Below are positions 3,238 through 55,049 of a stretch of DNA of 64,000 nt, piece after piece. Location: assembly GCF_003018255.1 (NCBI RefSeq), contig NZ_CP027440.1; one strand, 5' to 3'. The notes below the pieces were generated by a model, which saw only the letters and a list, made by a program, of their open reading frames with translations, did no database searches and had not been told where the DNA came from. The translations under genes and the position numbers were made by a program. How positions within the stretch are numbered: the stretch's first letter is position 1; each line of letters starts with the position of its first letter. The stretch comes from Escherichia coli. Its GTDB lineage: Bacteria; Pseudomonadota; Gammaproteobacteria; Enterobacterales; Enterobacteriaceae.

Positions 3238-4098
3238 TTAATTATGATTACGCATTACCCCTTCCTGAACGGTCGAGGCAACCAGCACGCCATCCTGGGT
3301 ATAAAACTCACCGCGCACAAAGCCGCGAGCGCTGGACGCCGAGGTGCTCTCCACGCTATACAGCAGCCATTCATTCAAATTAAACGGGCGATGGAACCAC
3401 ATGGAATGGTCAATGGTGGCAATCTGAATCCCCGGTTCGAGAAAACCGATGCCGTGCGGCTGTAAAGCTACCGGCAGGAAATTAAGATCAGAAGCGTAAC
3501 CGAGCAGATACTGATGAACGCGCAGATCATCCGGCACGTTACCATTTGCGCGGATCCACACCTGACGATGCGGTTCTGCGACGTGCCCTTTCAGTGGGTT
3601 ATGAAACTCCACCGGACGGACTTCAAGCGGACGATCGCAGATGAATTTATCTTTCAGCACTGGCGGCAGCAGGTGCGCCAGCGATTGGGCGATTTGCGTT
3701 TCCGAAGGCAGGCCATCAGGCGCTGGCGCGGACGGCATTGTTTTTTGATGTTCGAAACCCGCTTCTGGTGCCTGGAAAGAGGCAGTCATATAAAAAATCG
3801 GTTTGCCGTTTTGAATAGCAGCAACCCGGCGGGCGCTGAAGCTGTTACCGTCACGCAGCGTTTCGACATCATAAATAATCGGCTTCTTACTATCGCCTGG
3901 GCGAAGAAAGTAGCTGTGAAACGAATGTACCAGCCGCTCTTCAGGGACGGTCTCTTTTGCAGCATACAAGGCCTGACCCACGACCTGGCCGCCAAACACC
4001 TGGCGTAAACCTAAATCTTCACTCTGGCCGCGAAAGAGTCCTTCCTCAATTTTTTCCAGATTTAACAATGTCAGTAAATTTTTTAGCGCCTGACTCAT
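3238..4098 (-). CDS. tesB: Acyl-CoA thioesterase II
   Basis: Product [31 protein letters not shown]...; start taken at internal Met of ORF 3238..4182. Confidence 0.9.
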
Positions 4099-50558: not shown

Positions 50559-51368
50559 TCACCCCTGCAATATTTTGTCCATCACGCGCCCCGGCAGCAG
50601 GCGCTTAAGCACCATTACCGCCCAGGTCACCAGCGTTACCGGATAGCGCATCTTCGGCTTCTCGCTAATAAAAGCATGGCGTACTTTGTCCACCACCGCT
50701 TCCGGTCCCAACGTAAAGCGGGCGGCGATGCCGGGATTTTCGACTGGTTTATCACTTTGCGTCTGGTTGACGTTGTCGGTGAAGCGAGTACGAATGGGAC
50801 CGGGTTCGATCAGGCTGACTTTAATTCCACAGTGGCGTAGCTCCATGCGCAGCGCGTCTGACCACGCCTCCAGCGCATATTTACTGGCCGCGTAAGCACC
50901 ACGACCCGGCGTGGAGATTAATCCCATCACCGATGAGGTCATCACAATACGCCCTTCACCGTGCGGTAACATCGCGGGTAACAGGCGCATGGTGAGCTGG
51001 TGTGCGCCGAAAAAGTTGGCGGAAAACTGCTGTTCCATCTGCGCACGGCTGATGGTGGAAAGGGGGCCATACATGCCGAATCCGGCATTGTTAAAGATCC
51101 CATACAGACAATTATCGGTCAGGGCGATCACCTCGTTGGCTGCGCGATCAACACTTTCTGGTGAATCCAGATCGATCAACACGCCGGTAAATCCCATGCT
51201 GTTCATGCGCTCAACATCATCCGGTTTCCGGCAACCTGCCAGCACATGAAAACCCTGGCGTTTTAATTCGAGCGCGCTTTCCAGGCCAATTCCACTGGAA
51301 CATCCGGTAATTAAGACCGATTTTTGCATAACTTTACCTGTCAGGATCTCCGTTGCTTTATGAGTCAT
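50559..51368 (-). CDS. ybbO: Short-chain dehydrogenase/reductase YbbO
   Basis: SDR motifs TGCSSGIG and YAASK. Confidence 0.9.
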   Translation of the reverse strand: MTHKATEILTGKVMQKSVLITGCSSGIGLESALELKRQGFHVLAGCRKPDDVERMNSMGFTGVLIDLDSPESVDRAANEVIALTDNCLYGIFNNAGFGMYGPLSTISRAQMEQQFSANFFGAHQLTMRLLPAMLPHGEGRIVMTSSVMGLISTPGRGAYAASKYALEAWSDALRMELRHCGIKVSLIEPGPIRTRFTDNVNQTQSDKPVENPGIAARFTLGPEAVVDKVRHAFISEKPKMRYPVTLVTWAVMVLKRLLPGRVMDKILQG

Positions 51369-51984
51369 GATTTACTAAAGGCTGCAACTGCTTCGCCATC
51401 CAGTCGGCAATAAACGGCTGGGCGTCGCGGTTGGGATGAATACCGTCATCCTGCATCCATTGTGGTTTGAGGTAGACCTCTTCCATAAAAAAGGGCAGCA
51501 GCGGAACATCAAACTCTTTGGCGAGTTTGGGGTAAATGGCGCTAAAGGCTTCATTATAACGGCGACCATAGTTTGCAGGCAGACGTATTTGCATTAACAA
51601 TGGTTCAGCGTTGGCGGCTTTGACATCCTGCAATATCTGGCGCAGCGTTTGCTCGGTTTGTTGTGGCTGAAAACCACGCAAACCGTCATTGCCGCCCAGT
51701 TCTACCAGCACCCAGCGCGGCTGATGCTGTTTCAGCAGAGCCGGAAGGCGCGCCAGCCCTTGTTGCGAGGTGTCGCCGCTGATGCTGGCATTGACTACCG
51801 ACGTTTTACTCTGCCACTTATCGTTCAACAAGGCAGGCCAGGCCGCGCTGGCAGACATTCGATACCCGGCGCTCAGGCTATCACCCAGAATCAATAACGT
51901 GTCCGCTGCGGCGGCACGGAAGGTTAACAGGACCAGGAACAGGAAGGGCAAATGCCAGCGGAAAACATTGTTGAAGTTCATCAT
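51358..51984 (-). CDS. tesA: Acyl-CoA thioesterase I / lysophospholipase L1 (SGNH hydrolase)
   Basis: Product MMNFNNVFRWHLPFLFLVLLTFRAAAADTLLILGDSLSAGY...; GDSL motif. Confidence 0.93.
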   Translation of the reverse strand: MMNFNNVFRWHLPFLFLVLLTFRAAAADTLLILGDSLSAGYRMSASAAWPALLNDKWQSKTSVVNASISGDTSQQGLARLPALLKQHQPRWVLVELGGNDGLRGFQPQQTEQTLRQILQDVKAANAEPLLMQIRLPANYGRRYNEAFSAIYPKLAKEFDVPLLPFFMEEVYLKPQWMQDDGIHPNRDAQPFIADWMAKQLQPLVNHDS

Positions 51985-52638
51985 CTTAAGAAGTCCGTCG
52001 GTCAGGGGGAGCATGAACTCTCCATCCTCACCGGAGTTGAGCTGGTTGTCAAACGTGGCGAGACCATCGCACTGGTGGGCGAGTCGGGATCGGGTAAGTC
52101 AACTTTGCTGGCGATCCTCGCCGGGCTGGATGACGGCAGCAGTGGCGAAGTGAGTCTGGTGGGACAACCGCTACATAATATGGACGAAGAAGCGCGGGCA
52201 AAGTTGCGCGCGAAGCACGTCGGCTTTGTTTTTCAGTCATTTATGTTAATTCCTACCCTTAACGCGCTGGAAAACGTCGAGCTTCCGGCGCTGCTGCGCG
52301 GTGAGAGTAGCGCGGAAAGTCGTAACGGGGCGAAAGCGTTGCTCGAACAGTTAGGGCTGGGTAAACGTCTGGATCATCTTCCGGCACAGCTTTCCGGCGG
52401 TGAACAGCAACGAGTGGCGCTGGCACGAGCCTTTAACGGTCGACCTGATGTGCTGTTTGCCGACGAACCCACCGGCAATCTTGACCGACAGACGGGCGAT
52501 AAAATTGCCGACCTGCTATTTTCCCTCAACCGTGAGCATGGCACCACGTTGATTATGGTGACCCACGACCTGCAACTGGCGGCACGCTGCGACCGCTGCT
52601 TACGGCTGGTGAACGGGCAATTGCAGGAGGAAGCATGA
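51952..52638 (+). CDS. ybbA: LolD-like ABC transporter ATP-binding protein YbbA
   Basis: Walker A GESGSGKST, signature LSGGEQQR. Confidence 0.9.
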   Translation: MPAENIVEVHHLKKSVGQGEHELSILTGVELVVKRGETIALVGESGSGKSTLLAILAGLDDGSSGEVSLVGQPLHNMDEEARAKLRAKHVGFVFQSFMLIPTLNALENVELPALLRGESSAESRNGAKALLEQLGLGKRLDHLPAQLSGGEQQRVALARAFNGRPDVLFADEPTGNLDRQTGDKIADLLFSLNREHGTTLIMVTHDLQLAARCDRCLRLVNGQLQEEA

Positions 52639-55049
52639 TTGCACGTTGGTTCTGGCGCGAATGGCGCTCGCCGTCGCTATTAATTGTCTGGCTGGCGCTA
52701 AGCCTGGCGGTGGCCTGCGTGCTGGCGCTGGGCAATATCAGCGATCGCATGGAGAAGGGCTTAAGCCAGCAAAGCCGGGAGTTTATGGCGGGCGATCGGG
52801 CGTTGCGCAGTTCACGCGAAGTGCCACAAGCGTGGCTGGAGGAAGCGCAAAAGCGCGGCCTGAAAGTCGGCAAGCAGCTGACTTTCGCCACAATGACCTT
52901 TGCAGGCGACACACCGCAGCTGGCGAACGTCAAAGCGGTGGATGATATCTACCCGATGTATGGCGATCTGCAAACTAATCCCCCTGGCCTGAAACCGCAG
53001 GCGGGCAGCGTATTGCTGGCCCCACGCCTGATGGCACTGCTTAACCTGAAAACAGGCGACACCATCGACGTGGGTGATGCCACCTTGCGGATTGCCGGAG
53101 AAGTGATTCAGGAACCGGATTCCGGTTTTAACCCCTTCCAGATGGCTCCGCGTCTGATGATGAATCTGGCGGATGTCGATAAAACCGGAGCCGTGCAGCC
53201 GGGGAGTCGGGTCACCTGGCGCTATAAATTCGGCGGCAGCGAGAACCAGCTCGACGGCTATGAGAAATGGTTGTTACCCCAGCTTAAACCTGAACAACGC
53301 TGGTACGGTCTGGAACAGGACGAAGGCGCGCTGGGGCGATCGATAGAACGTTCGCAACAGTTCCTGCTGCTTTCGGCGCTTCTGACCTTGCTGCTGGCGG
53401 TGGCGGCGGTTGCGGTGGCGATGAATCATTACTGTCGCAGTCGCTACGACTTGGTGGCGATCCTCAAGACGCTGGGGGCAGGGCGAGCGCAACTGCGTAA
53501 GTTAATCGTCGGTCAGTGGTTGATGGTGCTGGCGCTTTCAGCCGTTACCGGTGGTGCGATAGGCCTGTTGTTCGAAAACGTGTTGATGGTGCTGCTCAAG
53601 CCCGTTTTGCCTGCTGCACTACCGCCAGCCAGCCTCTGGCCGTGGTTGTGGGCGCTGGGCACCATGACGGTCATCTCGCTGCTGGTGGGGCTACGACCGT
53701 ACCGCTTGTTGCTGGCAACGCAGCCTTTACGCGTATTACGTAATGATGTGGTCGCGAACGTCTGGCCGCTGAAGTTTTATCTGCCGATTGTCAGTGTGGT
53801 GGTTGTGCTGCTGCTCGCCGGATTAATGGGTGGCAGCATGCTGCTTTGGGCGGTGCTGGCGGGCGCGGTAGTACTGGCTTTGCTGTGCGGTGTGCTGGGC
53901 TGGATGCTGCTGAATGTACTTCGCCGCATGACGCTGAAATCGCTACCTCTGCGCCTGGCGGTTAGCCGCCTGTTACGTCAGCCGTGGTCAACGTTAAGCC
54001 AGCTTTCGGCATTTTCGCTCTCCTTTATGCTGCTGGCGCTGTTGCTGGTATTGCGTGGCGATCTGCTCGACCGCTGGCAGCAGCAGCTACCTCCAGAAAG
54101 CCCGAACTACTTTTTAATTAACATCGCCACAGAACAGGTAGCACCGCTAAAAGCGTTCCTCGCGGAACATCAGATAGTCCCGGAATCGTTTTATCCGGTG
54201 GTGCGGGCGCGGCTGACGGCGATTAACGATAAGCCGACAGAAGGCAATGAAGATGAGGCGCTCAATCGCGAACTCAATCTTACCTGGCAAAATACGCGGC
54301 CCGATCATAATCCGATTGTCGCCGGTAACTGGCCGCCAAAAGCCGATGAAGTGTCGATGGAAGAGGGGCTGGCGAAACGCTTAAACGTTGCCCTCGGTGA
54401 TACCGTGACTTTTATGGGCGATACCCAGGAGTTCCGCGCTAAAGTGACCAGCCTGCGCAAAGTGGACTGGGAAAGTCTGCGGCCTAATTTCTATTTTATT
54501 TTCCCTGAAGGGGCATTAGACGGGCAACCGCAGAGCTGGCTTACCAGTTTCCGCTGGGAGAATGGCAACGGCATGTTGACGCAACTCAACCGCCAGTTCC
54601 CTACTATTAGCCTGTTAGACATTGGCGCGATTTTAAAACAGGTCGGTCAGGTGCTGGAGCAGGTAAGTCGGGCGCTGGAGGTGATGGTGGTGCTGGTCAC
54701 CGCCTGCGGTATGTTGCTGTTGCTGGCACAGGTGCAGGTGGGAATGCGTCAGCGTCATCAGGAGCTGGTGGTGTGGCGCACACTCGGTGCGGGGAAAAAA
54801 CTGCTGCGTACCACGTTGTGGTGTGAGTTCGCCATGCTTGGGTTTGTTTCTGGCCTGGTAGCCGCAATTGGTGCGGAAACGGCGCTGGCAGTGTTGCAGG
54901 CGAAAGTGTTTGATTTTCCGTGGGAGCCAGACTGGCGATTGTGGATTGTGCTGCCGTGCAGCGGTGCACTGCTGCTGTCGCTTTTCGGCGGCTGGCTGGG
55001 TGCGCGACTGGTTAAGGGTAAGGCGCTGTTCAGGCAGTTTGCGGGATGA
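52635..55049 (+). CDS. ybbP: FtsX-like ABC transporter permease YbbP
   Basis: 804-aa duplicated FtsX-type permease overlapping ybbA stop. Confidence 0.9.
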   Translation: MIARWFWREWRSPSLLIVWLALSLAVACVLALGNISDRMEKGLSQQSREFMAGDRALRSSREVPQAWLEEAQKRGLKVGKQLTFATMTFAGDTPQLANVKAVDDIYPMYGDLQTNPPGLKPQAGSVLLAPRLMALLNLKTGDTIDVGDATLRIAGEVIQEPDSGFNPFQMAPRLMMNLADVDKTGAVQPGSRVTWRYKFGGSENQLDGYEKWLLPQLKPEQRWYGLEQDEGALGRSIERSQQFLLLSALLTLLLAVAAVAVAMNHYCRSRYDLVAILKTLGAGRAQLRKLIVGQWLMVLALSAVTGGAIGLLFENVLMVLLKPVLPAALPPASLWPWLWALGTMTVISLLVGLRPYRLLLATQPLRVLRNDVVANVWPLKFYLPIVSVVVVLLLAGLMGGSMLLWAVLAGAVVLALLCGVLGWMLLNVLRRMTLKSLPLRLAVSRLLRQPWSTLSQLSAFSLSFMLLALLLVLRGDLLDRWQQQLPPESPNYFLINIATEQVAPLKAFLAEHQIVPESFYPVVRARLTAINDKPTEGNEDEALNRELNLTWQNTRPDHNPIVAGNWPPKADEVSMEEGLAKRLNVALGDTVTFMGDTQEFRAKVTSLRKVDWESLRPNFYFIFPEGALDGQPQSWLTSFRWENGNGMLTQLNRQFPTISLLDIGAILKQVGQVLEQVSRALEVMVVLVTACGMLLLLAQVQVGMRQRHQELVVWRTLGAGKKLLRTTLWCEFAMLGFVSGLVAAIGAETALAVLQAKVFDFPWEPDWRLWIVLPCSGALLLSLFGGWLGARLVKGKALFRQFAG

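Follow-up and report, generated by a model that had tools for sequence, protein, structure and literature searches.

Evidence for a conserved head-to-head overlap of tesA and ybbA in Escherichia coli, with expression signals embedded in the partner gene

In a stretch of 64,000 nucleotides of Escherichia coli DNA (NCBI RefSeq assembly GCF_003018255.1, contig NZ_CP027440.1; hereafter the window), the oppositely oriented genes tesA and ybbA share nucleotides at the 5' ends of their coding sequences. We are confident that this overlap is real, and we consider it likely that it represents a genuine, conserved head-to-head arrangement in which signals for expressing one gene lie within the other. 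The genes concerned are the following:

51952..52638, plus strand: ybbA coding sequence, 228 aa, ABC ATPase of the YbbAP type VII transporter (ORF list and RefSeq annotation)
51358..51984, minus strand: tesA coding sequence in its 208-aa form, periplasmic thioesterase I/lysophospholipase L1 (PGAP starts at the ATG at 51981, 207 aa)
51952..51984, both strands: coding stretch shared by tesA and ybbA, 33 nt (30 nt with the PGAP start), in antiparallel codon-on-codon register
50559..51368, minus strand: ybbO, which follows tesA within one transcription unit and overlaps the tesA 3' end by 11 nt (51358-51368)
52635..55049, plus strand: ybbP (permease), overlapping the ybbA stop by a 4-nt ATGA (52635-52638)

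According to the ORF list, the tesA reading frame ends with a stop at 51358 and has in-frame ATGs at 52014, 51984 and 51981. With the 208-aa TesA (MMNFNN..., the start used for K-12 and in UniProt) the overlap with ybbA spans 51952-51984, i.e. exactly the 33 bp at the 5' ends of tesA (minus) and ybbA (plus) that a preliminary description of the window had claimed; with the 207-aa TesA of RefSeq/PGAP, which begins at the second ATG, it shortens to 30 nt. The length of the overlap, 33 or 30 nt, would thus depend on which tesA ATG is used, 51984 or 51981. Within the overlap the codons for His10 and His11 of YbbA (CAT CAT) are read on the opposite strand as Met2 and Met1 of TesA, and Met1 of YbbA corresponds to His11 of TesA. 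Both proteins are bona fide, with solved structures of 100% identical sequence and thousands of homologues; the locus therefore holds two real genes on opposite strands that share 5' coding nucleotides, i.e. a divergent head-to-head overlapping pair. The whole locus is compact, overlaps packing the ybbO/tesA, the tesA/ybbA and the ybbA/ybbP junctions.

Judged over a stretch of 1.4 kb, 5415 of the 5426 complete E. coli genomes contain the locus, with ybbO-tesA and ybbA-ybbP annotated on opposite strands. Compared with K-12 MC4100, TesA and YbbA are unchanged in protein sequence, and 18 of 1401 DNA positions differ, all of them outside 51824-52103; this pattern is consistent with constraint on the central region, although it would be too weak as sole evidence. 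As a side observation, of 5418 complete E. coli genomes only 251 carry the stretch 51300-52700 with an identity of at least 99% (most show 98.4-98.8%), so that the window derives from a minority lineage of E. coli.

The expression signals of tesA are located inside ybbA. Kim et al. (2012, PLoS Genet, PMC3415461, supplementary TSS table) report a tesA transcription start site (TSS) at position 519021(-) of NC_000913.2, supported by 45 reads and giving a 5'UTR of 32 nt. The 51-nt sequence upstream of this published TSS maps exactly to 52066-52016 of the window, which places the TSS at 52016 and defines two elements:

52024..52052, minus strand: tesA sigma-70 promoter, TTGACA (52052-52047), a spacer of 17 bp and GAGGAT (52029-52024), overlying ybbA codons 24-34
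51985..52016, minus strand: tesA 5'UTR, 32 nt from the mapped TSS, unstructured, with a weak Shine-Dalgarno sequence (GGA), overlying ybbA codons 12-22

The -35 hexamer TTGACA is perfect, and in a PWM scan this promoter was the top-scoring site on the minus strand (score 10.1; predicted TSS 52017). A strict consensus promoter scan of 51600-52400 found nothing; it missed the tesA promoter because the real -10 element, GAGGAT, matches at only 3 of 6 positions. In all Enterobacteriaceae loci the -35 hexamer is invariant and the -10 element reads [G/A]AGGAT. Promoter, TSS and 5'UTR thus all fall within ybbA codons 12-34, which bears out the proposal of the preliminary description that the expression signals of tesA lie inside ybbA. 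The folding of the tesA 5' region showed no excess stability compared with shuffled sequences (z=+1.0).

For ybbA the corresponding elements within tesA are:

51941..51948, plus strand: ybbA Shine-Dalgarno sequence AGGAAGGG, anti-SD duplex -7.0 kcal/mol, reverse complement of tesA codons P13-F14-L15
51797, plus strand: weak ybbA TSS within tesA, 155 nt ahead of the ybbA ATG, 2 reads; candidate promoter TTGCGA-17-TGGCAT
51565, plus strand: weak ybbA TSS within tesA, 387 nt ahead of the ybbA ATG, 2 reads; -10 TATAAC

The two ybbA TSSs, each supported by 2 reads, come from the same source (Kim et al. 2012, PMC3415461). Their PWM scores (5.8 for 51797 and 6.1 for 51565) are no better than background, and the 51 nt upstream of the TSS at 51797 differ from K-12 at two positions. 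Hence, of the earlier proposal that both the promoter and the ribosome-binding site of ybbA lie inside tesA, the second part holds, the Shine-Dalgarno sequence being contained in tesA codons 13-15, and the first holds only weakly: the 2-read TSSs hint at transcription of ybbA from within tesA, and the true ybbA promoter, and with it the length of the transcript overlap, is uncertain. A search of the Cappable-seq supplement, SMRT-Cappable-seq and TRAINSPOTTER N-terminomics for further evidence on TSSs or translation starts of the two genes returned no matches.

Since the tesA TSS lies inside ybbA and the ybbA TSSs lie inside tesA, the 5' transcripts are antisense to each other. The promoters face each other, and the transcripts are complementary over at least 220 nt (220 nt from the nearer ybbA TSS). 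The pair therefore shows the overlapping antisense 5' transcripts of a divergent excludon, with 2 reads supporting each ybbA TSS. A classical back-to-back bidirectional promoter was considered and rejected: there is no intergenic region, each TSS lies downstream of the partner's start, and the transcripts cross. No Rfam families were found in 51300-52700, and the putative ybbA leader folded no more stably than its shuffled versions (z=0.03); as neither leader folds better than shuffles, the idea of a structured regulatory RNA was dropped. A hairpin at 52210-52229 that resembles an intrinsic terminator is at chance level.

The double use of the DNA is reflected in the synonymous sites. We compared nine Enterobacteriaceae sequences that are collinear in the region and scored the fraction of same-amino-acid pairs with different codons. 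Along ybbA the synonymous pair differences are:

ybbA codons 1-11, shared with tesA: 0.047
ybbA codons 12-34, over the tesA 5'UTR and promoter: 0.187
ybbA codons 35-228, rest of the gene: 0.507

Elsewhere in ybbA no window of 23 codons falls below 0.424 (Mann-Whitney p=1.7e-7), and the edge of the low-divergence zone coincides with the tesA -35 hexamer. This profile shows that the embedded tesA promoter and 5'UTR constrain the synonymous sites of ybbA. The shared codons 1-11 of tesA are likewise nearly or fully invariant (0.027 or 0.000, compared to 0.45-0.51 elsewhere in the two genes); judged by these comparisons the overlap is conserved and under selection, to an extent greater than chance. 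In tesA codons 12-33, by comparison, synonymous divergence is only mildly reduced (0.33 vs 0.43, p=0.07), so that no comparably constrained ybbA promoter is visible. A separate dip in synonymous divergence (0.21-0.26 vs a mean of ~0.43) is seen at tesA codons 156-170 (about 51475-51519). It lies 46-90 nt ahead of the weak TSS at 51565, from which ybbA would be transcribed antisense to tesA, and may reflect either chance or the footprint of a regulatory site for the 51565 promoter.

For a broader comparison, 80 loci from different gammaproteobacterial and related species were retrieved with a profile of TesA homologues. In all 80, tesA is divergent from and adjoins a ybbA homologue, and in 78 of them a ybbP homologue follows (none was detected in the 1-kb locus L038 or in the Massilia locus L078), i.e. 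tesA stands divergent and next to ybbA-ybbP, as in a YbbAP-TesA type VII ABC transporter-hydrolase locus. As a measure that is independent of annotation we used D, the distance from the TesA GDS motif to the YbbA Walker A motif. D amounts to 193 nt in Enterobacteriaceae, 196 nt in Serratia, Photorhabdus and Providencia, 194-203 nt in Vibrio and 215 nt in Pseudomonas. The start geometry was scored for 79 loci with the most plausible starts, the start calls being heuristic: 15 Enterobacterales have an overlap of 30 or 33 nt, 16 loci one of 2 nt (a shared CATG), 31 loci a gap of 0-20 nt (10-11 nt in Pseudomonas) and 15 loci larger gaps, so that the spacer is near zero in 64 of the 79. The loci sharing a CATG include 6 of the 8 scored Vibrio as well as Psychromonas, Rheinheimera sp. 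A13L, Dokdonella, Cycloclasticus and Nitrincola; the palindromic CATG shared by the two starts was noted in L016, L019, L020, L022-L025, L033, L035, L053, L054 and L069 (junction at about 3420-3510). Its occurrence in non-enterobacterial Gammaproteobacteria suggests ancestral back-to-back starts with zero spacer. Going by these start calls, the spacer-less head-to-head layout is the norm of the family, and the overlap of 30-33 nt seems to be a 5' extension of tesA peculiar to the Enterobacterales.

The position of the tesA promoter seems to be conserved over a wider range as well. In 23 of the 80 loci the best sigma-70-like site on the tesA strand has precisely the same offset from Walker A as in E. 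coli, and these include Aeromonas, Shewanella, Bowmanella and one Vibrio. Outside the Enterobacteriaceae this conservation may stem partly from conserved YbbA residues, because the Ile-Leu codons of YbbA, ATC CTx, read AGGAT on the opposite strand. In the Photorhabdus and Providencia loci (L012-L015) the E. coli-type promoter at the conserved offset is outscored by a sigma-70-like site located downstream of the tesA ATG, so that transcription of tesA may differ in these genera. Large values of D were observed in Salinicola tamaricis (L056, 749 nt), L047 (353 nt) and L080 (348 nt), with a spacer of about 445 nt between tesA and ybbA in Salinicola. Such loci are natural 'uncoupled' versions of the pair and possible comparators.

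Whether the arrangement has a regulatory effect is a different matter, as the transcriptional interference or coupling of tesA and ybbA that had been proposed at the outset is only geometrically plausible. The overlap might be a selected regulatory device, a divergent excludon in which antisense pairing and transcription from opposing promoters would adjust the ratio of TesA to YbbAP or make the expression of the two antagonistic. Indeed, tesA-ybbA is one of the 16 divergent excludons reported for E. coli MG1655 (ExcludonFinder, NAR 2025, PMC12288877), listed in at least 50% of 58 RNA-seq samples; the TSS data imply promoters that face each other, 64 of 79 loci keep the near-zero spacer, and the synonymous constraint over the embedded tesA signals is strong. 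However, an excludon call is trivial for any two expressed genes with overlapping coding sequences, mutually exclusive expression would be odd for TesA and YbbAP as partners in one complex, maintaining two reading frames together with a promoter and a UTR is a simple explanation of the constraint, and 15 of the 79 loci have larger spacers. We therefore regard this reading as possible but doubtful. A bolder version would see in the near-absent spacer an ancient selected device, with a tesA promoter fixed inside ybbA (23 of 80 loci) and face-to-face transcription setting the hydrolase:transporter stoichiometry, and in the Enterobacterales overlap an adaptive refinement, the YbbA histidine being fixed solely for the tesA start; this we hold to be unlikely.

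The remaining alternatives concern the start codons. For ybbA there is little room for choice. Residues 1-228 of YbbA (MPAENIV...) are 100% identical to YbbA in PDB 9GE6/7/8 (cryo-EM, full 228 aa), and besides the ATG at 51952 the only ATG, GTG or TTG before the Walker A motif is a GTG one codon ahead of it. As no other ybbA start is usable, the overlap depends only on the start of tesA. Solved structures of TesA begin at residue 27, the mature protein, and TesA is periplasmic, so that its gene has to encode a signal peptide. The tesA ATG (51984/51981) is kept in each of the 15 Enterobacterales loci; the second of the two (51981) is the universal one, and three genera have ACG ATG. Correspondingly, position 10 and/or 11 of YbbA is a histidine, always encoded by CAT, in 15 of 15 Enterobacterales, compared to a histidine in 2 of the 65 other loci (Fisher p=2e-14, a value that, for a single clade, counts lineages and not independent events). 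Outside the Enterobacterales the same columns hold mostly R/K/Q and N/S/G. The fixation of CAT at this site indicates that the tesA start codon is under selection, and this imprint on ybbA is the strongest argument for the canonical tesA ATG. The start codon is in this way assigned by conservation rather than by direct mapping, and the conservation of the overlap nucleotides would not be cleanly divisible between TesA and YbbA. Two other in-frame codons have to be weighed:

52012..52014, minus strand: upstream in-frame tesA ATG, complementary to the ybbA His21 codon; as a start it would yield a TesA of 218 aa and extend the overlap to 63 nt
51949..51951, minus strand: downstream in-frame tesA TTG (codon 12), which as a start would abut ybbA with 0 overlap

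If tesA began at the ATG at 52014, the 218-aa protein with its 63-nt overlap would have to be translated from a nearly leaderless mRNA, or from longer transcripts using the strong GGAG ahead of it. This ATG has a strong Shine-Dalgarno sequence (-8.4 kcal/mol), it is present at this position in most Enterobacteriaceae, the mapped tesA TSS (52016) lies 2 nt before it, and several automatic gene calls list the 218-aa TesA. However, its Shine-Dalgarno sequence is upstream of the mapped TSS and hence absent from the main tesA mRNA; the ATG is lost in Citrobacter FP75, Rahnella and P. caribbeanensis, and in Rahnella the extension contains a TAG stop directly upstream of ATGATG. Furthermore, the ATG is simply the complement of ybbA His21, and the 218-aa TesA would carry an atypical signal peptide of 36 aa with an acidic residue. 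Taken together, we consider this start very unlikely. The tesA -10 region GAGGATGGAG (52012-52029 of the window, minus strand) doubles as the strong Shine-Dalgarno sequence (-8.4 kcal/mol) for this ATG, which explains why automatic callers give 218-aa variants of TesA; near-identical TesA proteins in the databases range from 194 to 218 aa.

That tesA instead begins at the TTG at 51951-51949 (codon 12), which would make the overlap an annotation artefact and let the genes abut as in Vibrio and Pseudoalteromonas, is very unlikely: 8 of the 9 Enterobacteriaceae sequences do have TTG or GTG at tesA codon 12, and zero overlap would come near the 0-2 nt geometry common in other Gammaproteobacteria, but this TTG is without a Shine-Dalgarno sequence (-1.5 kcal/mol), is missing in C. 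werkmanii (L004), Serratia, Rahnella, Photorhabdus, Providencia and Acerihabitans (including all loci of the D=196 group), would give a signal peptide MPFLFLVLLTFRAAAA whose n-region is without a basic residue, and would leave the fixation of CAT for His10/11 of YbbA (15 of 15 Enterobacterales) unexplained. A downstream tesA start, which would abolish the overlap, is accordingly the disfavoured option as far as the sequence comparison goes.

A genuine, conserved overlap with embedded signals could have arisen as follows. The tesA/ybbA pair would ancestrally have been almost spacer-less, with starts sharing a CATG as in many Gammaproteobacteria. Most likely, tesA then adopted an ATG located 8-9 codons further upstream, within ybbA, which would have lengthened the overlap and, at the same time, the n-region of the TesA signal peptide. 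As the two genes leave no DNA between them, expression signals lie within the partner gene. The stronger tesA promoter would then be likely to damp the weak ybbAP transcription by asymmetric interference, and/or the complementary 5' mRNAs might form RNase III-sensitive duplexes. As the products act together in the YbbAP-TesA complex, the gene pair stays together. Alternatively, the layout would have no regulatory effect: in a gene pair that has always lacked a spacer, the start codon would have drifted and the resulting overlap would have been tolerated.

Much of the framework is known from standard annotation and from publications, namely the overlap, its call as a divergent excludon and the YbbAP-TesA complex. 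The tesA-ybbO operon has been described, it has been reported that the tesA-ybbO and ybbA-ybbP operons partially overlap and that the proteins form a YbbAP-TesA complex, and the conserved linkage was used to support a physical complex that was then solved (PLoS Biol 2025, PMC12646458; structure of the complex 9GE8). The K-12 genes described there, tesA (b0494) and ybbA (b0495), are the same genes with the same overlap and nothing substantive differs; that study gives the K-12 locus without an analysis of start codons, TSSs or synonymous-site constraint. Like the divergent excludons of PMC12288877, a concept that comes from Listeria, tesA and ybbA are divergent neighbours with overlapping 5' transcripts; in classic excludons, however, long 5'UTRs overlap and expression is antagonistic, whereas here the coding sequences overlap and the partners are cooperative. 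In PMC12288877 the p19/dsRNA data are given in aggregate form. According to the available text of Huvet & Stumpf (2014, PMC4161906), divergent overlaps are the rarest class, with 2 of 663 overlapping adjacent E. coli pairs; these pairs resemble tesA/ybbA in having a 5'-5' overlap of coding sequences made by start-codon movement, and that text leaves the two pairs unnamed. Relocation of the start codon upstream is the usual route to divergent overlaps (PMC2716372).

A further parallel to the tesA/ybbA promoters comes from phage, since there, too, promoters fire toward each other over a short region and one is much stronger (45 vs 2 reads in the case of tesA/ybbA). The pR and pL promoters of coliphage 186 are face-to-face (convergent) promoters with measured transcriptional interference. 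The two cases differ in that interference has been measured for the phage pair, while the region shared by tesA and ybbA also encodes two proteins.

For work at the native locus the arrangement has practical implications. Deletions at the 5' end, tags or promoter swaps in tesA or ybbA damage the partner gene, a clean deletion of ybbA removes the tesA promoter, and overexpression of tesA from its native locus or engineering of the leaderless 'TesA touches the ybbA start. Phenotypes of ybbA and tesA knock-outs should therefore be read with damage to the partner gene in mind. Beyond such bookkeeping the finding may have little consequence; what it does illustrate is the dual use of DNA, with two reading frames and a promoter, a 5'UTR and a ribosome-binding site accommodated within about 110 nt and leaving a measurable footprint in the synonymous sites.
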